A DNA stretch of 63,797 nt, the filler included, from Globobulimina sp. (taxonomy: Eukaryota): assembly GCA_003354225.1 (NCBI GenBank). It is 35 parts of 35 records of this genome, joined end to end, with 100 filler letters (N's around TTAATTAATTAA, not from the genome) between each part and the next. Parts side by side here need not be neighbours in the genome. Positions count along the whole stretch, not along the records: positions 3,655 to 5,381 come from PIVH01012648.1; 34 more parts are not named here. One strand, given 5' to 3'. How positions within the stretch are numbered: the first letter of the stretch is position 1; each line of letters opens with the position of its first letter. The notes beneath the pieces were generated by a model, which worked only from the letters and a program-made list of their open reading frames with translations, made no database searches and was not told where the DNA came from. The position numbers were made by a program, and so were the translations under genes. Below, in pieces: positions 1 through 45,307 of the stretch.

Positions 1-1111
1 GAATTAATTCTTTGATAAAAGGAATCAATTCTTCATCTGTGTAACGCATATATCTGTAGGATACATGCGGTAAATTTGCAGGTTTCCAGCCTACATATTT
101 TAATATTTTTGGATGTGGGCTTAAGTTATTATTTGCAAGCGAAGCACCTCCAATTCTGAAGGAATAGGAAGTATATCTTTTTGCTTCTGATAATTTGTTT
201 AATTTGCTTATTTCTTTTGTGATTTTTGTAAACATTTTTGTTGTTAAATCGACATTATTTGTATACCTAAATATATTCGAATTTGGTGTTAATGGAAAAT
301 GGGGATTATCGGAAGCAAATTGTTTCTGGCGCATTAAGAAGACTTTTAATAATAAATACGGATTAAAGTAGTTACAGGGGCATGTTCTGGAGGTACCGTA
401 AATATATTTATTACCACATCGAGAGTCACCAACAATGACTTTTTTTATTACTTTCCTATATTTCTGATTTTTAAATGATACAATATATAATATAAAATGT
501 GATTTTCTTTTGTCTTTTTTATCTTTTATGTGCCGAATGTATTTTAATTTAAGTCCGTGTTTAGTTTTGCCGTTTGAACTTATAATTAATTCACACGGTC
601 TTACCATTGTGGCATAGTATAATTGAGCCAATGTGACTTTTAATAAATTATTTAATTTTATTGTTGCTAAGTATTTACCAAATGCTTTATAAAATTGTGT
701 GTATTTAATAATATGTTTTAATTCAAATGGTAATCTGCTATCTGTTTCTGTGCCGTATTCTTTTTTTAATCCATCTTTAAAATTATCAAAATCCCTATCT
801 TTAACGCATTCAATACTGCTGTTTTTCAGATCACATAACCAAATTAAGGTAGCTTGCCACATATGAATTGAAGCAACACTGCCTAATTGGAGCGATCTTT
901 CCGAAAACCAATATGTTACTACTAATGGGTCCAATGGCATTTCCAAAGGATCTTCATCGATTAATACACAATATTTGGCCCAGTTTCTCAGATTTGAGAC
1001 GTAGTGCGTTTTTGTTAATGTACATTTCTTTATCGTGCGGATTTTTACAATGTGGTTTGTGTTTTTTGGGTCTTTTGGTGCAATTCTATTATTTGATAAT
1101 CTCACTTTCAT
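1..1111 (-). CDS. DIRS/Crypton-like tyrosine recombinase, ~370 codons, no stop before contig end (missed by the ORF track)
   Basis: Manual translation MKVRLSNNRIAPKD...TMVRPCE...SFKNQ...CPCNY...YSFRIGGASL...VGWKP...YRYMRY...IKELI, colinear with the 13413 ORF. Confidence 0.9.
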   Translation of the reverse strand, partial: MKVRLSNNRIAPKDPKNTNHIVKIRTIKKCTLTKTHYVSNLRNWAKYCVLIDEDPLEMPLDPLVVTYWFSERSLQLGSVASIHMWQATLIWLCDLKNSSIECVKDRDFDNFKDGLKKEYGTETDSRLPFELKHIIKYTQFYKAFGKYLATIKLNNLLKVTLAQLYYATMVRPCELIISSNGKTKHGLKLKYIRHIKDKKDKRKSHFILYIVSFKNQKYRKVIKKVIVGDSRCGNKYIYGTSRTCPCNYFNPYLLLKVFLMRQKQFASDNPHFPLTPNSNIFRYTNNVDLTTKMFTKITKEISKLNKLSEAKRYTSYSFRIGGASLANNNLSPHPKILKYVGWKPANLPHVSYRYMRYTDEELIPFIKELI

Positions 1112-1727
1112 AAATTCTATTACGTATATTTAAAATAAAAACAATAAATCAACAGTGATTGGTTGAACAAATTTGGTATAAATTATATTACACATTATAG
1201 TATAAATTATTTGCATTACAATAACGCCTTACACGATTAGTTAATGACAATAATATATTGTAAAAACTAAAGGCTTTTTATAGGTTTCGTTACAGTACAA
1301 ACTGTTTTTTGTTTATAAAAGTACATTTTTAGATAACGACAAAAAAACTCTACAGTCACTTACTTCAAAAGAAGGGAAACTACACAGTTTGTTGAGACGC
1401 ATAACATTTTATGTAACCACATTGGATACAATGGTGATATTTCAATTTTATAATTCAGTTTCTTTGTAATTAAATTGATGCCATTTAAAGCATATTAAAC
1501 AACAACATTTAGCAATATTAACCAATTAAAATTAATTTAAAGGAAGCACATTAAAATGGCCTTAAAATAATACAATATTAACTTTTAATAAATGGACATT
1601 TAAACAACGAAATTTATGAGTAATGCCCTGATATTTTAGGGAATACAGTAGTGTTCCCGATAAGAGGTACGCATATTAGTACTAATATATATATATTAGT
1701 TACTAATATATTTATATTCTGGAGCAC
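1112..1727 (-). ncRNA. Candidate structured non-coding leader of YR element copy A
   Basis: Shares CTGTATTCCCTAAAATA, TGCGTCTCAA, AAGTGAC and GTCATTnnCTAATCGT with copies B/C in the same order; equivalent hairpins. Confidence 0.4.
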
Positions 1728-1827
1728 NNNNNNNNNNNNNNNNNNNNNNNNNNNNNNNNNNNNNNNNNNNNTTAATTAATTAANNNNNNNNNNNNNNNNN
1801 NNNNNNNNNNNNNNNNNNNNNNNNNNN
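1728..1827. other. Artificial contig linker (44 N + TTAATTAATTAA + 44 N), repeated every ~1826 nt across the window
   Basis: Same spacer with stops in all six frames recurs throughout; contig lengths decrease slowly (1727, 1726, 1725...), i.e. a length-sorted assembly. Confidence 0.98.
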
Positions 1828-3554
1828 TGTGATGCTTTGGTATTGGACGCGTCATCCACACAAAATTTAGGTGGACGAGACGGGGATTATAATTGGACAT
1901 TGCTTGGAGAGATTATTGACCCGGACAATAATGATACGGTGCTGTATAATATGTCCTCTTTTGATGGTAATGATCAAGTGTTTGAATGGAATGAGATTGC
2001 ACCAAATTCCGATTTAATGTTGTATTTAAATGTCACGTCTTGGTTTGGTCAACATAGTTCCACGCAATTTGCTATAAAAAAAGATAATAGACCACAGCCG
2101 CAGATATCTGTGGATGGACCACAAATATTCCAGATCAACAATGAGAATTTGAATGGCGTGGTTATATTGACTGCGATAATTACTTTTGATGATACATGTT
2201 TAAGGAACAACACTGCCAATATACCGTATAAATTAGAGTGGAATGTCACATGCGATTTGTGCACTAATATTGGTGTATTATTGTCCTATTTGCATGGTAT
2301 AACCAGCGCAGACGGCAAAGCTGATGTAATATCGATTTTAGCAGAGGATTATTTAGAAGTTGGCGCATCATATATATTTGAAGTGAATTTAGAATGTTTG
2401 GAAGAGTTAGAATGTTCAACTTATGGCACATTATCTATGGAGTATATATATTCCGATATAATTTGCCAGATTGCAAATGCGGATATATTTCTCGGTACAA
2501 TGACCTTGAGTCAATTTAAAGCATACAACAGTTTGTATTTGGATGGTATTACCTTTACTTATGACCCTGATCACGATATCAATGACAAAAGCAATTTATT
2601 ATGGGATTGGGAATGTTTACAAACTGAATATCATGGTTCAATCAGTTGTGATTTGTTATTATATGATAGCAGCAATGCACAGACCTCCACTGAGGATAAT
2701 TCATGTTATATACATTTTGGTGACGAGACTGGCACCCTTTCATATGATGAAACCTATCAATTTACATTCACAATGCATGTATATGATAAGACCCAATTAA
2801 ATCGACCACAGTGTATAGATACCACCACTGTGGCGGTTACCATTGACACGCAAGGCGCAGACATGGATTTTATTATATTGGTGGTACAGATAATTGCCAC
2901 GGAAAGAATTGTCAATGTCGATGATACTGTGCGGTTAATAGTATCTTTTATTGAGATCAATAATAATGATAATTTTGAGCTCAGTCATCCCGATGCGTAT
3001 TTAATATATGAATGGAGCGAAGAAAATGATTTATTAAGCACACAAGAGATAAAACTATTAAATATAAATAATGACGGCAGTGGCAACCTTGTCATACCAC
3101 CAAGTTCATTAAGTAATGGTGTATATAAATTTAACATCGCCATTACCGTCTATTTAGGCGAGGAGCTGATTGGCGGTGGTTCAGCAGGCATACAAATTGA
3201 AATAAAGCCAGGTCCATTAATTACGTCGTTTATGATCGCACCGGAATGCGACCATATTACATTGGCCACATTGGATGAATTATTTTCTATGAGATATAAT
3301 CTATTTGTAGAGGCAGAAAGTAATTATCCACCTTTGAGTTATGCATTTTCAAAGACACAGCATGCCCCTCCAACTACGGCTTATTTACACAATCAGTTGC
3401 TAAATAATGGAGAATTAATGAATGTCATGTTACCGGTGGGAGTGTTTGATCTTAATGCGCATGTATTTGATGTGAGCGGTACTTTATCCGTAAAGAGTAA
3501 GGCATGTGATATTCAAATGGATGATAATTATTCCATCAAGGCCAATGCTACGGT
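1828..3554 (+). CDS. REJ/PKD-domain extracellular protein, internal fragment
   Basis: Open across the whole contig; LDASS...YNW, LDG..TYDPD...WDWEC and LPVG motifs typical of REJ modules. Confidence 0.7.
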
Positions 3555-3654
3555 NNNNNNNNNNNNNNNNNNNNNNNNNNNNNNNNNNNNNNNNNNNNTT
3601 AATTAATTAANNNNNNNNNNNNNNNNNNNNNNNNNNNNNNNNNNNNNNNNNNNN

Positions 3655-4260
3655 GCAGCTACATTGACATGACATTTTGCACAAAATGTCATGTCTAAAC
3701 TCATAATTCGCCTTAATTATGAGATATAATTATATTTAGCTGCTGTATTCCCTAAAATACAGCGGTATAAAATTCATATTGATTGATTAGTGTAATTCGA
3801 CTCAAATCGTAATGGATTTCCGCATAAATGAATTATTCCTAATTTGCAACAATTTGACTCAAATCGTAACTGATTTCCGCAAAATATGATTGTTTCTCAA
3901 TTAATTGAATCTAATTTATATTAATTTTCAAATATTACTTTATTAATAATCTTCTCTCTGACACCACAGCGATAATTGAAATTACATAACTTTGACGTTG
4001 CATTGCACACTTTTACAATGTTTGTGCGTCTCAATTTTGTCACGAGCCCATCCTTTAAGTGAAGTGACCCAACTTTGAACTGAATTTTCTTAAATACTTA
4101 AAAAACTTTGTCAACTTAAATGTAACCCTTCAAGCTTTAAGGGAGTACCATTTATATGGTCATTCTCTAATCGTTCTGGGCATTTTTGTTTTGTGTTTGC
4201 CCTATAAAATTTTTGCATTTTGTTAATTATACTTAATAATATTAAACGTATACAATTTCA
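3655..4260 (+). ncRNA. Candidate structured non-coding leader of YR element copy B
   Basis: Stems 3655-3661/3737-3743, 3666-3695, 3700-3723, 3742-3763, 4147-4160, 4178-4202; indels versus copy C argue against coding. Confidence 0.45.
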
Positions 4261-4266
4261 GAATAT

Positions 4267-5381
4267 CTGAAAGCCAGATTGGGTAAAAATAGAATAGCAC
4301 CAAAAGATAAGCTTAATACTGCCCATATAAAGAAGATTAGAACCGGAGATAAAATACATTTAACGAAAACACATTATGTTTCTGCGTTGAAAAACTGGAC
4401 CAAATATTGCCTACAAATTGATGAAAATCCTTTGGGAATGCCTATAGACCCATTGGTTGTAACATATTGGTTCTCTGAGAGATCACTCCAATTAGGAAGT
4501 GTTGCATCAATAACTACATGGCAATCGTGCTTAGGATGGCTGTGTGACTTAAAAGGAGGATCCCATGAATGGAAAAATGATTATGATTTCAACCAATTCA
4601 AAAAAGGATTAAAAATTGAATATGCAGTAATTGCCGATCCAAGACTGCCTTTTGAATTAGAAAACTTAATAAAATATACAAAGAAATATAAAGCCTATGG
4701 TAGGCACTTAATTACAATTGATTTGAATATATTAATGAATGTTTTATTAATGCAAATATATTTTTGTACCATGGTAAGACCGTGTGAATATTTAGTAAAT
4801 ATCCGAAGCAAAACCAAATTCTGACTTAAAATGAAAAATATTGAACATTTATGGTCAACAAAAGTAAAGGAATGGTACTTCAGATTATCTGTCTTATCCT
4901 TCAAAAATCAAAAATATAGAAAAGTAATAAAAATTGTAATTATCGGTGATTCAAAATGTGGCAAAAGATACATGACAGGAACCAGCAAAACATGTCCCTG
5001 TAATTACATCAATCGATATTTATTATCAAAAGTATATCTAAATAGAATACGAGAATTTTCAATCAAAAATTCTCATTATATTTTAAATAAAAATTCAAAT
5101 GTATTTAGATTTAAAAACGGTTTGGATGTTTCAACCAAACATCTCGCGGACTTAGCGACCGAATTAAAAATACTTTGCAAATTATCCGAACCCAAACGAT
5201 ATACAGCATATTCGTACAGAATTGGTGGTGCATCTTTGTCGAATAATAACCGAATACCACACCCAAAAATATTGAAATATGTTGGATGGAAACCTGCAAA
5301 TCTCCCTCATGTGTCTTACCTATATATGAGATACAAAGAGGATGATTTTATAATATTTATTAGAGAATTGTTACATGGATC
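4267..5381 (+). pseudogene. Tyrosine recombinase with in-frame TGA at 4822-4824
   Basis: ORFs 4279-4824 and 4831-end are one frame; TGA replaces the GGA (Gly) of copies A and C. Confidence 0.85.
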
Positions 5382-5918
5382 NNNNNNNNNNNNNNNNNNN
5401 NNNNNNNNNNNNNNNNNNNNNNNNNTTAATTAATTAANNNNNNNNNNNNNNNNNNNNNNNNNNNNNNNNNNNNNNNNNNNNGATTTCTGTGGAACCGGAT
5501 TGGACTGCCTTTGTAACATTGGTCATGAAACAAATAAAGCCAAAATACAATTTATGTACATATATTAGACAATGTTTACAAAATAATAACTATTTATTTT
5601 TTGAAATAAGCTCGTTTTATAATATTTTTATGACTGAATATGAAGCAAAAAAATTATTTAAATTATTTATTGTTGAAGATTTATATCATAGTCCTGATTA
5701 TCATAATGGTGCTATTTCAAACGATGAACTAAAAGAAATTGATTTACTGATAAACAAAGAATTTGGTAAATTGATTGCACCGCATAATGGTTCCAATAAT
5801 ATTGTATATAAACAAAATACAAATTGGTTTGTTATAAAAAAAGGGACAATGAAATCCAAATTATAGAATAATAATTTAATTTACACTTCCATTTGAACTT
5901 TTTTGTATCTTTGTTATA

Positions 5919-6061
5919 CTTTAGAATATGACCTGTTTAAAACACATTGTTTTTAAAATCCGCAAATTCGCAAGCCGTTTTGTTGGGAGATGGTGATGAC
6001 CTCTCCATAGGTTTTAAAATTTTTCTAAAACGCAGTGTTTCAAACAGGTCATATTCTAAAG
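5919..6061. mobile_element. MITE, ~27-bp TIR CTTTAGAATATGACCTGTTT(A/G)AAACAC, TA-flanked
   Basis: TIR pair with one mismatch, TA on both sides; related copies at 26627-26837 and 52144-52169. Confidence 0.8.
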
Positions 6062-6721
6062 TAATAGTAATAATACAGAAAATAGAAACTTTTTGCTTCC
6101 AGTTTTGAGTTTTCTAGTGTTGAGTTAATTTCTTATTTGCACCTATCATATGGATCAGCGGCAGCCAATGTTCTGTGAAACTGTAGCGACAGCCAATGGA
6201 CAAAACAAATTATTGCAATTGGTATGTTGAAGTGGTGTAGTCATCGAATACAGTAACTCTTTGTCCCATTAATCAAATGTAGCAATACTTGAATGTAATA
6301 AATATATGTTTTGATTAATATGGAGATTAACAATAACAAATGGTTCGGTATCTCAATGATAGAGAATGCGTCTGCGGCTTCGGTCGTATCCTGGAGGCTC
6401 GCCTTCATTTATATGGTGGTTACTAACCAAATTGACAAACCGCTCGAAGCGGTTTATAGATTTCCCGATGAAGAGAGAGTGTTTGTTAGCAATAACTTAT
6501 TATTACAAACCAATGCTATACATTCAATTCGCATGGATGTAGGTTTAAATCCTACCCGAACCAATATCATTAATTTTTGGAGATGGTATTAATATTAAAA
6601 TTGCAATCGAAGTTATTTTGCTCATGCTGTTGTTCTTGGAATGCAATATTTATTGCTCAGCATGGAACAAACACAAAAGAAGTGTGACCATAAAAAGTCA
6701 ATTACATAACACAAAAATATT

Positions 6722-7208
6722 TCACTTTGTAGTTTCAAATTCTCTTAATTTATGTCTTTGTATTTTTTTTGAAATGGTCATAGGTAAATCCTCAACAAAT
6801 TCAACAATTCGCGGATATTCATGTTTTCCGACATGCTGCTTTGCAAAATTTTGAATATCTATTTTCAACTCATTCAATTTATTCTCGTCATTAATTTTAT
6901 ATTTCAACACAACAAACAATTTCACGATTTCATTCCTTAACTCATCAGCAACCCCAATGGCTGCACAATTTGCAATCAACTCATGTTTCATGCAAACATT
7001 CTCGATCTCTGATGGGCCAATCCGGTATCCCGCAGATATTATAACATCGTCACACCGTGAATAATAATAAAAATATCCATCCTCATCTTTTCTCGCTAAA
7101 TCCCCCGTAATGAGCCACTTTCTATTCCTTTCTGCATCCAATATAAACTTTTCATTTTTTTTTTTTTCATCCATCCAATAATTTAAAAACATGACTGGAT
7201 CGGGTGCG
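6722..7208 (-). CDS. Acyl-CoA synthetase (AMP-binding) C-terminal fragment
   Basis: TGDLARKDEDGY, R.DDVIISAGYRIGPSEIE, LPMTISKKIQR. Confidence 0.9.
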
Positions 7209-7418
7209 NNNNNNNNNNNNNNNNNNNNNNNNNNNNNNNNNNNNNNNNNNNNTTAATTAATTAANNNNNNNNNNNNNNNNNNNNNNNNNNNNNNNNNNNN
7301 NNNNNNNNAATCAACAAAAATAAAATACTAAAACGATAAGTAAAGTGAAATCCGCTCTGGTTTTTTTTTAATCTTTCATTATTTCCCCTTGTGTTTTTAA
7401 GGAAACACTTGATAAACC

Positions 7419-7793
7419 ATGGGAATTATATACAGCTCAATTTACGGTGTGGACAGAACAAATGCTCTTTGCGAGTTCTCTTCTTTTATATATTGCATTG
7501 GAAGCGTTGACGTGGTTGTATTTTCTGATAGATTGTCATATGAAGATAACACATTATTTACTGAATGTTATACACCTTATGCTGTGGGCTGTGGATCATG
7601 TCAAAAAACAATATATTACACAGATATAATTAAATTAGATGAACATCTTGAACATCCAGCATATATTACAAAGACAAGTGTTGGAATCAAAATAAAGACA
7701 AGAACTGAAGAAATATATATATATCCTGTTGCGAGAAATAACATTGCAAAAATACAACGCCTATGGGCTATGGTGCAGAGCACACTAAAATAA
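7419..7793 (+). CDS. Small hypothetical protein
   Basis: 124-aa ATG-initiated ORF; no recognised motif. Confidence 0.45.
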   Translation: MGIIYSSIYGVDRTNALCEFSSFIYCIGSVDVVVFSDRLSYEDNTLFTECYTPYAVGCGSCQKTIYYTDIIKLDEHLEHPAYITKTSVGIKIKTRTEEIYIYPVARNNIAKIQRLWAMVQSTLK

Positions 7794-8013
7794 GTCAGTT
7801 TCATTGTTTAATTTGTAATGTTTTAATAGTAGTCTTGCTATTGACTATTGTAACAATATGACTCTTTCCACAGAGACACTACCAGATTGGCCCTTTTTTG
7901 TATACCTCATATGATGCGTTTCTTTGGACGGTCTGTCCCCACTTTTGGATACGCGTTGCTCTGATAGATGAAAAGTTTTCTGGTTCAATTTTCCTTGACT
8001 TGACATTGTAACC

Positions 8014-9035
8014 ATGGCAAGGAGTTCTTTTTATCGTCTTCGCAGTTTCAAAATATTATTTGTTATTAATCTTTGGTTTATTTGTTGGATCATAATATGG
8101 CATTTTGCGCTTATTTGGCACACAGGATATGGTTTGACTAATGTTTTTAATGTCGATCACAAACCAAGTACAACAACAGAAACGAGAAGCACTGTCACTA
8201 ATAATACTCAAAAGCAACGAGAAATAGAAATATTAGTAAATGCACTAATTGACAACATAACGATATTGGATAGCAACCCCGTGTACAGAGTGGGCAATAT
8301 TTTATTGCATGATGGCGCCAAATGGAAACAGGATATTGATACAATTAAACATAACAAATCGTATAACGATACCATATTACATCGTTATCTAAATTTATTG
8401 CATTATAAGTATTCCAATTTCACAAGCTCGAAATTTAGAAAAGCAATTGATTGGTACACAAAAAACAACCAAAACAATATATATTATCCACAACAAAATG
8501 AATTTATAATACATTTGCGTCTCGGTGATGTTGTCGAAAAAGCATGGTTTCTGAAGCAACCATTCGATGTAATTATAAATAATACAATTTCTAAATATAA
8601 AAATATCTCTAAAATAACGTTTTTATGCGCAATGCATTGGGGTGGATATGTTGAGAGTCGATCGTTTTTTTACAATGCAACTGCGGAGGCTGAGAATGAA
8701 AGGAAATTACGAGATTTGTTCACAACAATTATAGATACATTTGGCACAAATAAACAAATTAAATCATACCAGTTAGTGTCAAATAAGAATGTTGATCGTG
8801 ATCTGATCGTAGCGGTAAAAGCCAAATATTTGTATACCAATCGATGTAAAAGTACATTTGCCAAAGTGCTAACAAAATTAAATTACGCTGGATATAAAAG
8901 GATATGGGATGCTATGCATAATAAGCGGCAGCTATGTTGGCTCAGATCTGGGTATCGAATAAAAAAGAGATATAAACAAAAACATAAACATAGGCATGGG
9001 CATAAACACCATCATCATACACATGAGACAAAGAA
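8014..9035 (+). CDS. Type II membrane glycosyltransferase-like (fucosyltransferase-like) protein with His-rich tail
   Basis: N-terminal TM segment, S/T stem, IHLRLGD motif (HxRxGD). Confidence 0.55.
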
Positions 9036-9423
9036 NNNNNNNNNNNNNNNNNNNNNNNNNNNNNNNNNNNNNNNNNNNNTTAATTAATTAANNNNNNNNN
9101 NNNNNNNNNNNNNNNNNNNNNNNNNNNNNNNNNNNATGGACACAATAATGGAAAAAAACGAAATTTTTGGCGGATCAATATCCTTAACTGTTATATATAT
9201 GTTGTTAATTATTCTTAGTTTTGGTAGGCTCCTATCGCTAAAAAAAGAAAGTTGTCAATATTTTTATCATATATATTTAGAATAAATCTATAAATATAAC
9301 ACAATAAGTCTATAAATACACACACATACACACACACACACACACAAACAAACACACACACATACAAGACACAACATAAAAACATGTCACTTGACAGCAC
9401 CTTAGAGTCTATCGATGGTTTAA

Positions 9424-10515
9424 TTGGTTTCGCCAGCATCATCACAAGGTAACTCACAACATATTTTTGTCACCCCAACAGCAGTAAGAAATCAACACAT
9501 GAATTTAGGACAAATGAGAGGTGTCGTTCAAATATTTAGACATTATTTCCCAAAAGGAACGGGTAAAAGAATGAATAAAGAGCAAAAGCAAAGGAAATGG
9601 AACAGTTATAAAAACAAAATTTATCAATCATATCGAAGAATAATTACTGGGAAGCTTGCGTCTGAAAAAGCATTAGTAAAAAGATATTCTGAACCATTAG
9701 CTTTCATAAAATATAAATTAAAACGTGCAACAAATTTAAAGGTAACAGATTTAAACCTAAATGATCAAGATTATTTTCATGAAATTGGTGGTGTTGATGA
9801 TATAAATGAGTTAATAAAAAAAACATATAACATTGACTCAGTGGGCAAAATGTCTCAGACATTTCAACCATTATTTGGTGGTCGAAAAAGACGTAGAACA
9901 AATAATAATAATAATAATAATAATAATGATGATGATGCTGAAGATGATGATATTGATATATTATTACCACCAACTGTAACAATACCAAAGGTAGAAAATA
10001 TTAATGGTGGACGAAAATTAACACATGCATTGACAGTATTAAATGATAAATTGGATATTTTCGAAAGAGAGCAATTAGAGAAAAAAAAGATTGAAATGTT
10101 TGAAATCACCAAACAAAAAATATCAGCTTTAATTACTTCAGTCGAAACACAATTTATTAATAAACCACATATGATTGGTTGCATTCCTGGTATTACTGCA
10201 GGTGATCAAGAAAAATTATCATTTATTTGTTGGTTAAATACATATAAAGATGTGATTAAGCAAGATAATGCAATAACAAATATTACAATGGAAATATTTA
10301 TATCCCAAATAGTGACACTTCAAACAGATGTTATGGCTTGGCATGAATTTTTTACAAGATGGAGGTTAAACAGAATTATATATAATGATAATTTTGAAAT
10401 TATTTGGAAAAAAGTAAAACATAATTTAAATATATATGATATTGATGATATTAATGATGATGAAGAAGAAGAAAAAGAATTTGAATTAAATATTAATGAT
10501 AAAGAAGAACTATGA
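9424..10515 (+). CDS. Hypothetical nuclear protein, possibly Myb/SANT-like transposon accessory protein
   Basis: 363-aa ORF; EQKQRKWNSYKNKIY, NLS-like RKRRR, coiled-coil; followed by long hairpins. Confidence 0.5.
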   Translation: MVSPASSQGNSQHIFVTPTAVRNQHMNLGQMRGVVQIFRHYFPKGTGKRMNKEQKQRKWNSYKNKIYQSYRRIITGKLASEKALVKRYSEPLAFIKYKLKRATNLKVTDLNLNDQDYFHEIGGVDDINELIKKTYNIDSVGKMSQTFQPLFGGRKRRRTNNNNNNNNNDDDAEDDDIDILLPPTVTIPKVENINGGRKLTHALTVLNDKLDIFEREQLEKKKIEMFEITKQKISALITSVETQFINKPHMIGCIPGITAGDQEKLSFICWLNTYKDVIKQDNAITNITMEIFISQIVTLQTDVMAWHEFFTRWRLNRIIYNDNFEIIWKKVKHNLNIYDIDDINDDEEEEKEFELNINDKEEL

Positions 10516-10592
10516 CATTTTTTTTTTATTATTATTTTTCCTTAATAATATTTAATATATATATATATATATAGTATACACCGAAATATCAG

Positions 10593-10852
10593 AAACATGT
10601 ACAAAATATTACTTGGTTAATATTTTGTACATGTTTGAAAATGCTATTTCAAAACATGTACAAAATATTACTAGGTTAATATTTTGTACATGTTATTAGT
10701 CTAGTCGAAAATATTATATACAAACAAGTTATTATATATATATATTAACTTATTTTATTGCAAATTTGAAGATAACATCTCAGCCACACCTTGTACACTT
10801 CCAATTGACTCAACTGAACTCAGCGCCAAGCGCTGAGCTCATTTGAGTCAAT
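10593..10852. repeat. Two tandem 18-19-bp-stem palindromes plus a long GC-cored hairpin
   Basis: 10593-10636 and 10653-10694 perfect stems; 10804-10852 hairpin. Confidence 0.85.
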
Positions 10853-10962
10853 ATTCCAGTGTNNNNNNNNNNNNNNNNNNNNNNNNNNNNNNNNNNNNNN
10901 NNNNNNTTAATTAATTAANNNNNNNNNNNNNNNNNNNNNNNNNNNNNNNNNNNNNNNNNNNN

Positions 10963-11305
10963 AATACTAAAGAACCCGCCATGTTTGTAGTTCATCATAT
11001 AGGAACTTACCCCATAAGTGAAACCATTATTTTCACGAAGATTCGACATTAATCTTGATCCGAAATAACCGCCGAGAACAGTGTTAAGAACAATAAGACT
11101 GTTGTAATCAGGATGTTGCTTGCTAATAATTGGTCTTCCGATTCGTATTGCCGATTGTAGAGCTCCTTCCTTTTCTACAAACTTATCCAAATCTTCAACT
11201 TCATTAACAATATTTATATTTGAGTAGGGAGCATTGATTTTACTCCCATTTTCTTTTCCAAAGTGCTTGTTGATTAAAGAAATCGTTTGGTCATTAATTT
11301 TACCG
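10963..11305 (-). CDS. Bacterial M16 (insulinase-family) peptidase fragment
   Basis: QSAIRIG...HPDY..L.VLNTVLGGYFGSRLMSNLRENNGFTYGV. Confidence 0.85.
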
Positions 11306-12689
11306 CTCATTTTGCGCATTTTATTGACTCGGCCTATCCAAAAAACAGCAATCTCACAGTGCCGCAACTGAAGATTGCTAATAATATCATAACGGCGTCC
11401 CCTATAATTCTGCCGTTTAAGTTATTCGATTACAAACACAACCAACGTCTCATGCTGTGGTCATTTGACGTCAAGGCAATGTATCCCAGTCTGATCCATT
11501 CATTTTGCCTGCAAGTTTTGGATCTGTATTGGGATAAATACTCCGCTTCCCTCCCTCCAAACCCATCCAAAAACTGTGTTAAAGCATTCCTATGGTTCTC
11601 CATTAAAAACGCCATCTCAACCTTCAATGGCAAACTCTATCAGAAAATTGCAGGCATTGGAGCCGGTGAGGACTTTGCTGCTCAGTTAGCAGACATATCT
11701 ATCAGTTACGTTTGCGAATTCCTGCATAGTGCCCGGTGGCTATCCAACACGACGACGGGCAATCTGTTTTACAATGGAGCATACAGAGACGATATGTTTA
11801 ATGTTGGATACACTTCATACCATCACATCGAACAAATTCGTAATGGTATTAGCACTTTAACCGAAGGCATTGTTTTTACTTCAGACATAAAATGTGGAGG
11901 TTTAGTATGTGTGTTCTTAGACTCAAAACTGTTTCTGACACCTTCAGGAATCCAGGTACAGATATTCGCAAAGACCACGGACGACCACGCTTATCTCAAA
12001 ACGTCGTCGCAACATCCGGCATATCAATGGAAGGGCATCGTGAAAGGCGTTGCCCTCAAAGCCCGCAGTATTTGTGATGATTATTTCGTCGACGAAGCCT
12101 TCTATAACTACAAATGTTTCATGATTCGAAGAGATTATAACCATGTATTGGTCAATCAGATATTCAATGAGCTGCGCAAGAAATCAAAGGAGGAAGCGTT
12201 GAAATTGTGGTTTCCCAACAAACCCAGAACACGCTATCGCAAATCGTCAAGGCCACAACCACCACATCTCAACTCTGAGACTGTTCCAACAAATCCCCAA
12301 CAATCTCTCCCTCCAACAGTCCATACCAACAAACTCAATCTCAAAATCATGCACCATTTATTTCGCGAAACCAACAATCCCATATTTTATAACTCCCTCA
12401 ATAAACTTAAATATTTAGGCCATGCACCTTTGTCATTCATTGATGACAATCCAAATCTGTCCTTATTCATCAATCCAACCCTGGACAATGATGAAAAGTG
12501 GCAGCTCAATAATATAAACTGTGCATACCACAAACCAATCAAATCTGCCAATTCGACCCCAGCCCCAAAGCTGTGGTTAGTTCGTGAGTTCCATCCGAAT
12601 CACGCGGACTTCTACAAAATCGCCAAAGTCAATTACAGCAAGTTCCTCCGCACCAAACCAACCTTGTCCGTGTTATTCCCGTTGGAGGA
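11287..12689 (+). mobile_element. Penelope-like retroelement reverse transcriptase, partial
   Basis: FDVKAMYPS, YQKIAGIGAG, YRDD, FLD, K.TD..AYL...S.HP......IVKG thumb motif. Confidence 0.85.
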
Positions 12690-12789
12690 NNNNNNNNNNN
12701 NNNNNNNNNNNNNNNNNNNNNNNNNNNNNNNNNTTAATTAATTAANNNNNNNNNNNNNNNNNNNNNNNNNNNNNNNNNNNNNNNNNNNN

Positions 12790-13394
12790 GCAGCTACATT
12801 GACATGACATTTTGCACAAAATGTCATGTCTAAACTCATAATTCGCCTTAATTATGAGATATAAATATATTTAGCTGCTGTATTCCCTAAAATACAGTGG
12901 TATAAAATTCATATTGATGAATTAGAGTAATTCGACTCAAATCGTAATGGATTTCCGCATAAATGAATTATTTCTAATTTGCAACAATTTGACTCAAATC
13001 GTAATTGATTTCCGCAAAATATGATTGTTCTCAATTAATTGAATTTAATCTTCAAATATATAATGTTGAATAGTTTATTATTAATCTTCTCTCTGACACC
13101 TCAGCAATATTTGATGTTTTATGACTTGATATTGCATTGCACACTCTTTACAATGTCTGTGCGTCCCAATTTTGTCACGAGCCCATCCTTTAAGCGAAGT
13201 GACTCAACTTTGAACTGTATTTTCTTAAACTTTTAAAAAACTTTGTCAACTTAAATGAAACCCTACAAGCTTTAAGGGAATACCATTATTATGGTCATTC
13301 TCTAATCGTTCTGGGCATTTTTGTGTTGTGTTTGCCCTTAAAAATTTGCATATTGTTAATTATAATTTAATAATATTAAACGTATACAATTTCA
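12790..13394 (+). ncRNA. Candidate structured non-coding leader of YR element copy C
   Basis: Same stems as copy B; several differences keep pairing through G-U or A-U. Confidence 0.45.
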
Positions 13395-13400
13395 GAATAT

Positions 13401-14515
13401 CTGAAAGCCAGATTGGGTGATAATAGAATAGCACCAAAAGATAAGCTTAATACTGCCCATATAAAGAAGATTAGAACTGGGGATAAAATACATTTAACTA
13501 AAACTCATTATGTTTCAGCGTTGAAAAATTGGACCAAATATTGCTTACAAATTGATGAAAATCCATTGGGAATGCCTTTAGACCCATTGGTTGTAACATA
13601 TTGGTTCTCTGAAAGATCACTCCAATTAGGAAGTGTTGCATCAATAACCACATGGCAATCTTGCTTAGGATGGCTGTGTGACTTAAAAGGAGGATCCCAT
13701 GAATGGAAAAATGATTATGATTTCAACCAATTTAAAAAAGGATTAAAAATTGAATATGCAGTTAATGCCGATCCAAGACTGCCATTTGAATTAGAAAACT
13801 TAATAAAATATACAAAGAAATATAAAGCCTATGGACGGCACTTAATAACAATTGATTTGAATATATTAATGAATGTTTTATTAATGCAAATATATTTTTG
13901 TACCATGGTAAGACCGTGCGAATATTTGGTAAATATCCGTAGCAAAACCAAATTCGGACTTAAAATGAAAAACATTGAACATTTATGGTCAACAAAAGTA
14001 AAGGAATGGTACTTCAGATTATCTGTATTATCTTTCAAGAATCAAAAATACAGAAAAGTAATAAAAATTGTAATTATCGGAGATTCAAAATGTGGCAAAA
14101 GGTATATGCCAGGAACCAGCAAAACATGTCCTTGTAATTATATTAATCCATATCTATTATTAAAAGTATATCTTAAGAGAATACGAGAATTCTCAATTAA
14201 ATATTCGCATTATAATTTAAATAAAGATTCGAATGTATTTAGATTTAAGAATGGATTGGATGTTTCAACTAAACATCTCGCGGACTTATCCACCGAATTA
14301 AAAACACTTTGCAAATTATCTGAACCCAAACGATATACAGCATATTCGTACAGGATTGGTGGAGCATCCTTGTCGAACAATAATCGAATACCACATCCAA
14401 AAATATTGAAATATGTTGGATGGAAACCTGCAAATCTCCCTCATGTGTCTTACCTATATATGAGATACAAAGAGGATGATTTTATAATATTTATTAGAGA
14501 ATTGTTACATGGATC
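13401..14515 (+). CDS. DIRS/Crypton-like tyrosine recombinase, no stop before contig end
   Basis: Core-binding N-domain; catalytic R (MVRPCE), K (SFKNQ), YSYRIGGA, GW, YMRY. Confidence 0.9.
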
Positions 14516-14615
14516 NNNNNNNNNNNNNNNNNNNNNNNNNNNNNNNNNNNNNNNNNNNNTTAATTAATTAANNNNNNNNNNNNNNNNNNNNNNNNNNNNN
14601 NNNNNNNNNNNNNNN

Positions 14616-16211
14616 TTACACTTTGAAAATTGGTTAGAATCCAATGAAAATAAATTAAAATTGGAAAATAGTCGAGAAATAAATGAAATTAATCAGGAAA
14701 TGATTGAACAAAGAAATAAATTGAAACAAGAAACAAATTTAAGTTCATTAGAATTAAAATTAACGCTAACTTCAGAATTACAAAGATCTAAATTGGATGC
14801 ATTGAATAAAAAACTACAAACTGCCAAACCATTGCAAGAAAACAAAGATTTAATAAATAAAAATGAAGACATTGAAAATGAAGAAAAAGCGCGAGAAATA
14901 AAAAATATTCAAAAGGAAAATGAAGAAAAAAATCGTCAGGAAATATTAGAACAAGAAAATGTGTCATATTTTGAGAATGGAGCTTTTTTACGAGATTATG
15001 AAATACAGCAACAGTTATTGGAGATATTTGGTTATTTTATAAAAATATGGAACGAAAATCAAGCACAAAATGAAGAAAATGATAAATTATTTATTTCAAC
15101 ACTGTATTTATTACAAAACTTATGCAAAAGATTGCGAGAAATAATATCGATGAAAACACTAAAAACGTTGCGATTAAATGAAGAAATTATGATTAAAATG
15201 AAAAAAAATGAGTTTATTGCAAATCATATGGATAATTTATTGTGTTCCATTGGTTTTACATTATCAGCAGCCAATGACAAGGCAAATGGATATATTCCCC
15301 AACAATCAAATATTTTCATTGATGCCGGTATTTGTAATATTTTAGCCAAATTAGATGAATATCATAGCAAATATAAGAAATATTTATTCAAAGTGAATGA
15401 TAAAAATATAGATTATATAAAATCATTTGAAATGGATTATAGAAAATCAGTAAACAAGAAAGGTGCGCCTAGGAAAGTGATGACATGCAATGAAAATAAA
15501 AATGTAATTGATACTCCGTACATTGCAGCATCCCAATCACCGTCACCATCACCAGCACCACATCATTCTCATACTCATACTCATTCAGATAATAATAAAC
15601 ATTGTAGTTGCTGTCCAATTGACTCACCAAAAAGGGCAACAAAAATGGATTATTTAGGAAGAAATAGAAAGAATGTGATATCAATGAATGAGTTAGAAAA
15701 TTATTCAACAGCAGTTTCAGATATACAATTAAACTCAAAATACATTGAAACGGAAGGTTCTGTACAACAGAGAGTGCGAACAACATCAACATTTCCTCGA
15801 TTATTGAGTTCAAAGGATGCATTTCCGACTATTGTTATTCAGCCACATTGTATTGATTTTGGTGATATTTTAATTGGATATATTTACAGATTTACGGCAT
15901 CGATAACAAATCATGGACATAGTCAGGCGAGATTTAAAATAGATATTGAGGGAAATAATAATCCAGACATTCATATCAAACCATATTACAGAGCTGGTGG
16001 TATTGCGCCTGGCATCACCATTATGTTAGAAATTGAATTTTATGCAAAGCGTCTGAAAGCAGGGAAATATGCAAACCGTTTAAAAATAAAAACACAAAAA
16101 CATATTTTTAATGTCAATATAAAAGCGAATATAATTGAAGATAGTTTTATTAATCCTGTCAATAATAATAACAAAAAAAGTAGAGTCACTTGTTTAGGAA
16201 AGAAATACTGA
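14616..16211 (+). CDS. Coiled-coil protein with C-terminal ASH/Hydin-like Ig domain, 5'-partial
   Basis: IDFGDILIG...ITNHG..ARFKI...GGIAPG. Confidence 0.6.
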   Translation, partial: LHFENWLESNENKLKLENSREINEINQEMIEQRNKLKQETNLSSLELKLTLTSELQRSKLDALNKKLQTAKPLQENKDLINKNEDIENEEKAREIKNIQKENEEKNRQEILEQENVSYFENGAFLRDYEIQQQLLEIFGYFIKIWNENQAQNEENDKLFISTLYLLQNLCKRLREIISMKTLKTLRLNEEIMIKMKKNEFIANHMDNLLCSIGFTLSAANDKANGYIPQQSNIFIDAGICNILAKLDEYHSKYKKYLFKVNDKNIDYIKSFEMDYRKSVNKKGAPRKVMTCNENKNVIDTPYIAASQSPSPSPAPHHSHTHTHSDNNKHCSCCPIDSPKRATKMDYLGRNRKNVISMNELENYSTAVSDIQLNSKYIETEGSVQQRVRTTSTFPRLLSSKDAFPTIVIQPHCIDFGDILIGYIYRFTASITNHGHSQARFKIDIEGNNNPDIHIKPYYRAGGIAPGITIMLEIEFYAKRLKAGKYANRLKIKTQKHIFNVNIKANIIEDSFINPVNNNNKKSRVTCLGKKY

Positions 16212-36937: not shown

Positions 36938-37991
36938 TTACATCGCAAACTTATTGAAACAATGCAGTGAATGTACAAAAATTGGATTATAGGTGGAATT
37001 AAACAGTGTAAAAGTGATTATTACAAATATTACAGTACCTAAATATGCTGTTTGTATTAATGGATTTCCGGGTAATACATAATGCGCTGTTAATCTCAGT
37101 ATTTTTTCAGATGTTTTCTTCTTTTTATATTCGCTAAAATCGATTGTAAAATGTATTGCCGGAGGAAACGAAGCCATTACAATTTGCATATCATTTTCAA
37201 ATTTTTGTTTCTCAATCAAATATTCATTATTTACATTTCGCGATATTGTCGTTCCAACACATATTGCGCCACATTCACGTAATGATTTAACGGGTTTTCC
37301 TTTTGCTACACCCAAATTATATGCAGCTGTCACCATATCATCAAATCCCGCACCCTCCACAATCATAAACGGCCTCAAATCTTTTGCCACAAATTTTACA
37401 GCCCCGTTTGTTAATTTTTTTATTTCAGCAGTTGTAAATTTAATAATTTTTGATTTTTTTAATTCCATTGTTTGCTGCAATGTCAATTGGATATTTCCAT
37501 CATTATCCTTTTGATTTTCTTGTTTAATATTATGTGCATTCTGTAAATGCGAATTCCAGCTTGATAATGATGTGTTTAATGAATAAATTAAAACACAATG
37601 ATCACATTTAATAGCAATCTCTTTACCTGTGTCCTCATTGAATATAATAGATACATTTTTCCATACAAATGATTTCCATTTCACTCCGTCTCTTCTTGAT
37701 AATTTATATTCTTTTTTTTTAAGTCTTTCTAATATTCCTTCTTTATCAAGTTTTCGTCTTTTTGCCCTTGGCTGAGATTTATCGCCATCTTCTTCTTGTT
37801 TTCTTTCAATATTATGGTTTGACATTAGTAAGCGCACTGTTTGGAAAAGAATAAGTACGAAGGAATAAGTTGTTTTAGTTAAATAATCACACAAGTCACG
37901 GCTAAATGTGCTAGTCATGACTACATTTTAGTCATGACTTAGTCACGAGTTAGTCATCATTTTCACAAATTAGTCACGAGTCAGGGGTCTG
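36938..37991 (-). mobile_element. hAT DNA transposon left end and 5' part of the transposase (likely ATG at 37825)
   Basis: BED finger (VW...C..C...HL...H), DLRPFMIVEGAGF, FTID, LTAHY; terminus CAGACCCCTGACTCGTGACTAA; TAGTCAYG subterminal repeats. Confidence 0.85.
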
Positions 37992-43825: not shown

Positions 43826-45307
43826 TATAATAAAGGACATACATTATTTTTCCATGGAACATCCCAAGTGAATAAAAATGCAGAGATAAACAATGGATTA
43901 ATATATTATAACACCACACAGTTACAACAACTGAGAGCTTGGGGATTTAAAGCAATTCGTCTAGGTTTTCTATGGAATGCTTACGAAACATCACCAGGTA
44001 TATTCAACGAAGCATACATGAACGGAATAGAAAATATAACCAATTTATACGCTGCATATGGTATGTATACAATATTGGATATGCATCAAGATTTGTGGTC
44101 GCCATTATTCTGCGGTGGACACGGCATCCCTGAATTTTACAGTTATCCTGATAACACCACACAAGAATACTGGAAATATCACAATAAAACCTATCCATTG
44201 CCGCACTTCCAACCGCATGGCTATACTGACAACGATGTATATGCCAACGTTTTCGGCCACGTAGATGGCATAACATGCAATGAAATGGTTACTAATACCA
44301 CAGTTGGCTGGGCCTCATCATATACTACTTTTGCGTTAGGAAATGCAGCACAGAGATTATACGATAACGCTGATGGATATCTTGACAAATTTGCACATAA
44401 TTTCTGGAGGAAAGTGGCTGCAAAATTTGTCGACAACCCTGCTGTTTTAGGCTACGAATTGATAAATGAGCCGTGGGTCGGTGATGTGACAAATTTCCCT
44501 GAACTGTACACACCGAAAGCATGCGATGTGCTCAATTTACGGCATGTGTATAAATATTTAAATGATGTTATCAGATTGGTTGATAATGAAACCATAATAT
44601 TTTATGAACCTTGCACTGGAGGCAACGATTTGGATGCCACGCCATGCGGATTTAATGCTGGTCCGGGTGGCAATGCGTACGATGACAAACAATCGTTGTC
44701 GTATCATATATATTGTCCATTTATTCAAACGGACGTACCAATCACAAACGATACGAGAGTGAATAATACATTGTTGCGGATTTGCTATGATATAAATAAT
44801 TTGCAATGGTACTGGAGGTTACTTGATACAAAACGGTTAAAAACAGCTGGGTTTTTAACTGAGTTTGGTGCGGTGCCGTATACGCCGATGGGATGGAGTA
44901 TGATTAAGTATATGGCTGATAAATGTGACGAGAATTTGGTGTCTTGGACTTATTGGTATATGGACTTGCATAGTGCACGGGATATGGCACAGATACATTA
45001 TATTACGCGGACGTATGCGTATCAAGTGGCAGCCACAAATGTTACGGAAATGTATTATAATGCGACAAGTGAATATTTCAGATTGCAGTATGTTTTGATG
45101 GAGGATATGGTGGAAAGGAATTTAACGACAAGGATATATTTTTCATATAAATTGCATTATTCGAATGGTGTGAATTGGAGTGTGTCGCCTGAGAAAATGG
45201 TAAATGTTGAAGTTAATTACGAGGATAACGATATCATTTTGCGTCCAATACAGAATCCGGAGAATAATAACACAATATTGCTGTTTGAGTTGCGATCTAA
45301 ATCGTGA
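43826..45307 (+). CDS. GH5 endoglycoceramidase-like glycosidase, 5'-partial
   Basis: IRLGFLW, LDMHQD, GYELINEP, LTEFG, RTYA. Confidence 0.9.
   Translation, partial: YNKGHTLFFHGTSQVNKNAEINNGLIYYNTTQLQQLRAWGFKAIRLGFLWNAYETSPGIFNEAYMNGIENITNLYAAYGMYTILDMHQDLWSPLFCGGHGIPEFYSYPDNTTQEYWKYHNKTYPLPHFQPHGYTDNDVYANVFGHVDGITCNEMVTNTTVGWASSYTTFALGNAAQRLYDNADGYLDKFAHNFWRKVAAKFVDNPAVLGYELINEPWVGDVTNFPELYTPKACDVLNLRHVYKYLNDVIRLVDNETIIFYEPCTGGNDLDATPCGFNAGPGGNAYDDKQSLSYHIYCPFIQTDVPITNDTRVNNTLLRICYDINNLQWYWRLLDTKRLKTAGFLTEFGAVPYTPMGWSMIKYMADKCDENLVSWTYWYMDLHSARDMAQIHYITRTYAYQVAATNVTEMYYNATSEYFRLQYVLMEDMVERNLTTRIYFSYKLHYSNGVNWSVSPEKMVNVEVNYEDNDIILRPIQNPENNNTILLFELRSKS

Follow-up and report, generated by a model that had tools for sequence, protein, structure and literature searches.

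The window analysed here is a stretch of 63,797 nucleotides (nt) of DNA from the eukaryote Globobulimina sp. (assembly GCA_003354225.1). At positions 3655..4266 of its plus strand lies a 612-nt non-coding spacer, called the leader below, which opens a contig at its first base and ends with the codon that precedes the conserved start position of a tyrosine recombinase (YR) gene. In our reading, this leader is most probably the pol-YR spacer of a retrotransposon of the Ngaro-like kind (DIRS order), because relatives of the locus carry an open reading frame (ORF) for reverse transcriptase (RT) and RNase H without a methyltransferase, and then a separate YR gene. The element type is already known. 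The original prediction had placed the leader simply upstream of the recombinase; with RT/RNase H directly upstream in relatives, it is most likely an internal retrotransposon spacer instead.

On balance, and with restrained confidence, we favor the view that the leader is a composite cis-acting region of such an element in this AT-rich eukaryote, and not a separate RNA gene. Its 5' module (3655-3909) would act at the level of the nucleic acid during replication or recombination of the element, with a palindrome, H1, that may be built like a core site of the lox/FRT type or may be a hairpin in RNA or single-stranded complementary DNA (cDNA). The pair of 57-nt repeats in this module is a putative accessory protein-binding site, and the 3' module (4000-4266) would serve YR expression, either as an internal promoter plus 5' untranslated region (UTR) or as a splice acceptor. 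These functional assignments we infer for all parts of the leader.

A probable spacer between pol and recombinase genes

A metagenome scan with the YR gave three confirmed related loci (L001, L002 and L003). L002 begins inside the YR and is uninformative on the upstream gene, while in each of the two loci with upstream DNA the YR is immediately preceded by a pol ORF of like orientation. The pol ORF of L001 (3..1274) matched RVT_1 (1.6e-6) and RT_RNaseH (6.3e-5), both slightly below the Pfam cut-offs; Pfam gave no methyltransferase match in this ORF, which belongs to a relative and not to the window copies and which ends ~115 amino acids past its RNase H match. An ORF ending at 479 in L003 is homologous to the RNase H part of L001 (35% identity, E 7e-26). 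The distance from pol stop to YR start in L001 is 596 nt, and the contig starts of the two window copies B and A, described next, lie 612 and 616 nt before the YR start. The L001 spacer aligned weakly with the leaders of B and A (z-scores of 2.0 and 2.1, reverse-complement controls 0.2-0.5). We infer from this homology that the window copies also have RT/RNase H upstream. All loci stop short of the 5' end of the element and of the gag position.

The window itself consists of 35 contigs of 1,724-1,727 nt each, with a GC content of 27-46%, apparently ordered by length and chained by linkers of N-runs around TTAATTAATTAA. Because it is made of joined contigs, features at contig edges are without known neighbours, and this includes the start of the leader, since position 3655 is the first base of contig 3. 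The recombinase is carried by three of the 35 contigs: copy A (1-1727, minus strand), copy B (3655-5381, plus strand) and copy C (12790-14515, plus strand). C matches B at 93% identity over its entire length, and A is 69% identical to B over the ORF only (BLASTN). The corresponding spacers are 12790..13400 (plus strand) in C and 1112..1727 (minus strand, 616 nt from contig start to start codon) in A.

Consistent with the original prediction, the ORF downstream of the leader is, by its modelled structure, a tyrosine recombinase with a Cre-like two-domain fold. An AlphaFold2 (AF2) model of the full-length relative P0002, built from a 50-sequence alignment, had a predicted local distance difference test score (pLDDT) of 89.8. 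When it was compared with the pdb set by Foldseek, the top 15 ranks were all Cre-family chains (Cre, Cre variants and Tre), the best match being Cre itself over both domains (E 2.4e-9, TMt 0.69) among 55 matches at E<=0.001; XerH, lambda Int and Tn1549 Int ranked below the Cre-family chains. Of the catalytic residues, R171, K214 and W342 never vary among 50 relatives, R319 and Y354 are conserved in at least 90% of them, and A, B and C have all five. In the xxR box, Y stands in place of H at the first position. Searches by sequence found little. Pfam returned no family for the copy A YR, its Phage_integrase family was matched by one of eight family members (E 0.012), and a PDB sequence search with the YR profile gave one weak unrelated match only (E 0.016). 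The same profile gave 95 pattern matches in viral_contigs and 19 in genome_contigs, with none confirmed in either. Look-alikes in the Atlas were eukaryotic integrase-like and RT clusters, which serve as leads only.

The ORF of copy A (2..1111, minus strand, 370 codons) starts with ATG and runs off the contig end; that of copy C (13401..14515, plus strand) is intact, has a CTG start and is cut by the contig end; and that of copy B (4267..5381, plus strand) has CTG at the conserved start position and is cut ~33 codons before the expected stop. Copy B is evidently a dead copy, because it contains an in-frame TGA at 4822-4824 (plus strand) where C has GGA. The contigs of all three copies stop within 6 nt of one YR codon (..HGS), ~33-36 codons short of where relatives would place the stop. 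The contigs of B and C agree fully in their first 75 nt and their last 119 nt (5263-5381 and 14397-14515), the latter without any synonymous change. We considered and dropped the idea that the contig ends are restriction or library artefacts, as no end motif is common to the 35 contigs. A reading of the contigs as circular or tandem units, with the YR ORF running across the junction, was dropped as well: joined copy B stops after 4 codons, and the joined end and start have no match to the conserved C-terminal IYDPW motif of the relatives. The HGS codons of L001 (CATGGATC) and its DPW codons (GATCCATG) are the two arms of an 8-nt inverted repeat, at a distance of 58 nt. L001, whose YR ORF has 406 amino acids, also carries an opposite-strand ORF of 260 amino acids (3358-4140, minus strand) that ends 266 nt after the YR stop, so that element either has a short 3' part or is a truncated copy.

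The strongest evidence that the leader has a function comes from the pace at which it evolves. Copies B and C differ at 121 alignment columns. Within the ORF there are 63 substitutions and no insertions or deletions (indels); by codon position the substitutions number 10, 5 and 48, and over 370 codons, with 12 amino-acid differences, the nonsynonymous rate (dN) is 0.0148 and the synonymous rate (dS) 0.258, for a dN/dS of 0.057. The leader accounts for the other 58 columns, 7 of them indels that do not come in threes, so that the leader is evidently non-coding, with no conserved ORF, as the original prediction had also held. We calculated Jukes-Cantor distances, K(B,C), for each segment of the leader. 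K(B,C) was 0.018 for the hairpins H1-H3 (3655-3766; 2 differences in 112 nt), 0.036 for the 57-nt repeats (3767-3909), 0.37 for a variable stretch (3910-3999) and 0.071 for the 3' module (4000-4266). Taken as larger blocks, the 5' 254 nt gave 0.028, the 3' 265 nt 0.071 and the 90 nt between them 0.37. Except in this single 90-nt stretch, synonymous sites evolve 4 to 14 times faster than the spacer; the 5' module matches the pace of nonsynonymous sites and is about nine times slower than synonymous sites. The leader is thus, on this one pair of copies, evidently under purifying selection, and because it evolves slowly in comparison with synonymous sites we regard this non-coding region as probably functional.

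Copy A extends the comparison to a distant leader. Global alignment of the B and A leaders exceeded dinucleotide shuffles (z 4.3, reverse-complement control z 0.5), and by this measure the two leaders are homologous and far diverged. Four motifs that had been reported in copy A were recovered on its minus strand, collinear with B: a 17-mer in hairpin H3 (3743-3759 in B, identical at 1632-1648 in A), TGCGTCTCAA (4025-4034 and 1392-1401), AAGTGAC (4062-4068 and 1355-1361) and GTCATTnnCTAATCGT, with GTCATTCTCTAATCGT at 4159-4174 in B and GTCATTAACTAATCGT at 1233-1248 in A. A motif CCCTAAAA that also occurs in the L001 spacer is not collinear and was treated as chance, and 12 matches of the 17-mer in viral_contigs, on unrelated contigs, were judged by a rough estimate of expectation to be chance and were left unused.

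Hairpins of the leader

The first 112 nt of the copy B leader hold three perfect hairpins, at the places where they had been predicted. H1 (3666-3695; 12801-12830 in C) is a 30-nt palindrome with a perfect 14-base-pair (bp) stem and a 2-nt centre, and may alternatively be read as 11-nt arms around an 8-nt centre, TTGCACAA, that is asymmetric at its middle two bases. H2 (3700-3723; 12835-12858 in C) has a perfect 9-bp stem and a 6-nt loop, and H3 (3742-3763, plus strand; 12877-12898 in C) has a perfect 8-bp stem, GCTGTATT / AATACAGC, with the loop CCCTAA. G-U pairs, available on the sense strand only, lengthen H3 to 3739-3766. Folded as RNA, nt 3655-3770 reached -38.3 kcal/mol (z -7.13), and none of 200 shuffles folded as well. 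The 30-mer of H1 is expected 0.00 times in window shuffles, and it has no further occurrence in the window and no match in viral_contigs or genome_contigs. Copy A, as had been noted, has terminal hairpins of a different sequence: its first 116 nt contain perfect AT-only palindromes (1681-1718, minus strand), unlike B (z -3.1 and -3.5), and its whole leader folds with a z of -2.10.

A further stem had been proposed to close this structure, formed by GCAGCTA at 3655-3661 and TAGCTGC at 3737-3743. The two complementary words are present, but the minimum-energy fold of 3655-3770 on the sense strand omits the 7-mer stem, which competes with the extension of H3. Only the minus strand, when folded as DNA, forms this stem, and 3655-3743 then becomes a three-way junction of closing stem, H2 and H1.

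The 3' module contains one more hairpin, H5 (4140-4168; 13275-13303 in C), which is kept in all three copies and includes the words ACCAT / ATGGT at 4147-4160. The earlier claim that these are compensated in copy A by ACAAT/ATTGT (1247-1261, minus strand) proved real, as one of three compensatory pairs, with both sides changed, among the 12 pairs of H5; one other pair has a one-sided change and two are broken in A. The observed covariation was reached by 19 of 500 shuffles and is suggestive, coming from three sequences. H5 in copy B is more stable on the sense strand (-16.2 kcal/mol) than on the antisense strand (-9.5 kcal/mol), and its G-U pairs exist on the sense strand only. Nothing comparable to H5 was found in L001 (z -0.30).

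These properties raise the possibility that the leader, or its 5' 110 nt, is a structured RNA: a packaging or dimerization signal, an element for YR translation or a recombinase-associated RNA. Beyond the z of -7.1 for 3655-3770, the whole copy B leader folds better on the sense strand (z -3.07) than on the antisense strand (z -2.08; 20 shuffles each), G-U pairs in the H3 extension and in H5 are confined to the sense strand, and the compensatory pairs of H5 lie in the same direction. Both stem changes between B and C preserve pairing on the sense strand, as had been predicted: C-to-T at 3763 in copy C turns a G-C pair of H3 into G-U, and a G-to-A change in H5 is likewise tolerated. A retrotransposon would, moreover, be transcribed through the region in any case. 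However, H1-H3 consist of perfect Watson-Crick pairs of equal stability on both strands, with DNA folding z-scores of -6.99 (plus strand) and -6.97 (minus strand); DNA-level inverted repeats or cDNA hairpins would account for them as well as RNA would. The 17-mer of H3 is conserved by its sequence, loop included, and not by covariation; with four leaders, two of them 93% alike, covariation is without statistical weight; L001 is without the structure; and strong hairpins ~500 nt from the start codon are poorly placed for an internal ribosome entry site. No Rfam match was found in the leaders either: a cmscan search of 1..15000 at E<=1 gave nothing in the three leaders and two weak microRNA (miRNA) model matches elsewhere. 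What stands of the original structured-RNA reading is that the region is non-coding, conserved and in part stably folded, and we consider a structured RNA an unlikely explanation of it. That the module is transcribed into a structured RNA which partners with the recombinase seems extremely unlikely. The four alignable leaders speak neither for nor against a free-standing RNA gene.

One public sequencing run contains the leader stretch, and it places H1 beyond copies B and C; two further runs gave no aligned contigs. When contigs of this run were aligned on B, the summed word depth, which is not a copy number, was 417 in the bin 3655-3712, as against 12.7-51.8 in the other 29 bins. Loose contig ends occur at the borders of H1, before it at 3665/3666 and behind it at 3695/3696, in at least five contig records. 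In one record, H1 leads into a stem that resembles H2 apart from its loop, and another has 7 further bases upstream of the contig start. Evidently H1 also lies on other, deeper contigs in other contexts, and the assembler would have ended contigs at H1 because of these other occurrences. This fits an H1 that is either kept across subfamilies of the element or placed at junctions. Contigs of the same run leave out 100 nt (4502-4603) and 270 nt (4946-5217) of the YR ORF, which means that the sample includes copies of the element with deletions.

Alternatively, an unrelated multi-copy repeat of palindromic or foldback type may have landed in the ancestor of B and C, either H1 by itself or the 89-nt block 3655-3743 that the 7-nt inverted repeats delimit, with a prominence that is partly made by the assembly. 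The leader starts at a contig end, B and C are identical there for 75 nt, the H1 bin is deep with loose ends on both sides, L001 has no H1, and the window holds another foldback at 5911-6070. But copy A, whose spacer is barely alignable, also has perfect palindromes at this place, of different sequence, and two independent insertions at one spot are unlikely, which counts against an unrelated repeat. The extra depth is, in addition, confined to the first bin and does not cover all 89 nt (bin 3713-3770 stands at 45.5), and the run contig with H1 and then an H2-like stem suggests relatives of the same module. An unrelated repeat is therefore very unlikely in our estimation.

Repeats, variable stretch and 3' module

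Between the hairpins and the variable stretch lie two tandem 57-nt units with 77% identity (3794..3902, plus strand). Each contains a 26-nt core, GACTCAAATCGTAAnnGATTTCCGCA (3799-3824 and 3856-3881; 12934-12959 and 12991-13016 in C), and a 5-6-5 inverted repeat (3804-3819 and 3861-3876). Copy A has an exact 10-mer pair, 60 nt apart (1573-1582 and 1513-1522, minus strand), at the place aligned to these repeats. Paired repeats that change together within each lineage would resemble binding sites of the element's own protein. Tandem Repeats Finder (TRF) detected no long tandem array in the leaders beyond a 21-nt unit in A and a 29-nt unit in L001, the latter occurring twice in the L001 spacer (1294-1348) in place of the hairpins. 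The stretch that follows in B (3910..3999, plus strand) is AT-rich and fast-evolving: B and C differ at 26 of its 89 aligned nt, there are 2 gap columns, and it has no sign of constraint.

The 3' module (4000..4266, plus strand) contains, besides H5 and the islands that it has in common with copy A, the inverted words GGGCA...TGCCC (4178-4202), a TATAAAA (4203-4209) and, close to the YR gene, a TTTCAG (4256-4261). The AG at -7/-6, 5 nt before the YR start position, is invariant in all four aligned leaders, and it is part of TTTCAG in B and C. The start is ATG in A and L001, and M occupies the start column in at least 90% of 50 relatives, while B and C have CTG at this position (4267-4269 and 13401-13403) and no in-frame ATG for 57 codons. 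The invariant AG may mark a splice acceptor, in cis or in trans; alternatively, translation of B and C may begin at a codon other than AUG.

These features would suit a leader that is devoted to YR expression at the DNA level, as an internal promoter or enhancer plus 5' UTR, or one that is a spliced intron or outron, with hairpins that are incidental sites for transcription factors. A eukaryotic second ORF that begins ~600 nt past a stop requires either a promoter of its own or splicing, and the conserved islands, the TATAAAA and the AG in four of four leaders fit this need. B and C, too, have CTG instead of ATG, yet their ORF shows the low dN/dS given above, and in L001, as read from its sequence, a GT 13 nt before the pol stop is in phase with the AG before the YR start. 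However, the strongest constraint (K 0.018-0.036) lies at the far 5' end, 350-600 nt from the start codon, in perfect palindromes that are unusual for a promoter, and H1 is common to other contigs of the source run. There is also, as weak evidence, no sign of RT-fused proteins: a YR profile search gave 378 representatives at E<=0.001, none of the best 150 exceeding 483 amino acids, and fused RT-YR proteins had no match among proteins of 712-2030 amino acids, although prokaryote-style gene calls would miss spliced forms. Expression control as the explanation of the whole leader is, in our judgment, quite unlikely.

Several observations weigh against a composite cis-acting spacer of a Ngaro-like element. 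RT/RNase H is found neither on the contigs of A, B and C nor elsewhere in the window, and the linkage to pol is drawn by homology to L001 and L003 only. The L003 spacer between pol and YR spans only ~80 nt, and the start of the L001 spacer is without a hairpin module (z +0.41); because of these two loci, the hairpin module is lineage-specific and not a requirement of the family. L001 has no significant direct repeat, split ones of the arrangement A1-[ORFs]-B1A2B2 included, and a comparison of its spacer with its 3' tail for terminus-like repeats scored 27 against a shuffle mean of 29.7, so a reading of the spacer as a recombination junction is without direct support. The arm sequences of H1, H2 and H3 are unrelated, which is odd for sites of one recombinase, and the sense-only G-U pairs in H3 and H5 point to a role as RNA or plus strand for at least those two hairpins. 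Gene conversion between copies could contribute to the low K of the 5' module and to the identical 75-nt and 119-nt ends. Finally, the window was probably drawn from the very sequencing run that contains the leader, which therefore offers no independent evidence, and its comparison amounts to contigs aligned on copy B.

Elsewhere in the window, long ORFs on other contigs matched the eukaryotic families REJ, SH2, SAM, cytochrome b561, HYDIN-like Ig domain and GH5 cellulase. The GH5 cellulase ORF (43826-45304; Pfam E 1.8e-24) stands amid an otherwise animal-like gene set (SH2, REJ, SAM). The foldback at 5911-6070 is ~160 nt long with inverted arms of ~28 nt (ACTTTAGAATATGACCTGTTTAAAACAC and its complement) and matched a plant miRNA model weakly (E 0.028, 30.3 bits where the gathering score is 139); in appearance it is a miniature inverted-repeat transposable element (MITE) or a foldback, and we do not call it an miRNA. 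An ORF of 329 amino acids at 36941-37927 (minus strand) has a weak match to the Hermes transposase DNA-binding domain (E 6.2e-4, 19.8 bits, cut-off 20.5) and may be a remnant of a hAT-type transposon.

Known systems and the biology of tyrosine recombinase retrotransposons

According to the excerpted texts of PMC3266345, PMC4157794 and PMC8547959, Ngaro elements have no methyltransferase, mostly no ORF overlaps, and a YR; their gene arrangement is also described in the part of PMC9210276 that was available. The present relatives agree with this in their RT/RNase H ORF with no methyltransferase match, the separate, non-overlapping YR in the same orientation, and their eukaryotic hosts. They differ in that the present spacer is ~600 nt long, is under selection and has a module of hairpins and palindromes, and in that the internal repeats of Ngaro, as far as these partial sources go, lie downstream of the YR, with no such spacer described. 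A long, selected pol-YR spacer with a lox-like palindrome does not appear in the excerpts of PMC3266345, PMC4157794, PMC8547959, PMC9210276 and PMC7192593, and no search was aimed at such spacers; the word 'hairpin' has no occurrence in the excerpts of PMC3266345, PMC8547959 and PMC9210276 and one in that of PMC7192593.

Other members of the order carry internal non-coding segments. In the available sections of PMC4157794, Kangaroo has internal repeats that pair with its termini between the methyltransferase and YR domains, which is the same kind of place as the present spacer. For DIRS-1, the excerpt of PMC7192593 describes an internal complementary region (ICR) that is essential, a cDNA that is mostly linear and single-stranded, and a primer that is unknown, with a hairpin proposed for this role and a YR whose specificity is untested. 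The DIRS-1 ICR and the A2B1 repeats of PAT and Kangaroo resemble the leader in being non-coding internal segments, in their case essential for completing the element ends (for the ICR, in that same excerpt of PMC7192593), and in being self-complementary and hard to assemble or amplify. Membership of this class, however, needs identity or complementarity to the termini, which lie beyond the contigs here; L001 is without such a repeat, and the one hint of a match is the occurrence of H1 on other contigs of the source run. Cryptons, which are YR-only DNA transposons, were also compared. The window contigs show only a YR ORF and upstream non-coding DNA, as in Cryptons, but L001 and L003 have RT/RNase H beside the YR, and the window contigs end before that region. 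An identity as a Crypton is set aside for these two relatives, given that RT/RNase H lies directly upstream of their YR, and is probably wrong for the window copies.

Two further groups of systems bear on the function of the 5' module. Core sites of the lox/FRT/dif type consist of two inverted arms, 11-13 bp each, that flank an asymmetric centre of 6-8 bp. H1 is similar, with 11-nt inverted arms and an 8-nt centre, its reverse strand differing at 2 central bases only, and the neighbouring protein has a predicted Cre-like two-domain fold. In contrast to such sites, the arms of H2 and H3 differ, the stem of H1 runs through its nearly palindromic 'spacer', and the likeness is read from the sequence. 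Integron attC and CTX phage attP are folded single-stranded substrates of YRs, and the inverted terminal repeats (ITRs) of parvoviruses are T-shaped. The three-way junction of 3655-3743 on the minus strand, folded as DNA, is similar to these, but the module has an internal position and a closing stem of 7 bp, and here the likeness comes from a predicted fold.

It is possible, though doubtful, that H1 is the core site of the recombinase, the specific reading of the 5' module that we prefer because of its lox/FRT-like architecture, the Cre-like fold of the neighbouring protein and its place as a hub in the assembly. That the whole H1-H3 module would be a recombination substrate of the YR, whether in duplex form, like lox, or folded into a hairpin on single-stranded cDNA in the manner of integron attC and CTX phage attP, has a rather small chance of being correct. 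If it were, H1 would be a hub at which leader-plus-YR modules and their flanks are exchanged, and for no eukaryotic YR retrotransposon would a recombination site have been defined before.

What looks like a 'structured leader' in raw sequence can thus belong to the interior of a mobile element that contig ends have cut. For YR retrotransposons, the target of the recombinase, the priming of reverse transcription and the means by which the downstream YR ORF is expressed are not known. The region described here offers short, concrete candidates for these functions, as it is non-coding and slow-evolving, adjoins the YR gene and contains a perfect, lox-like palindrome.

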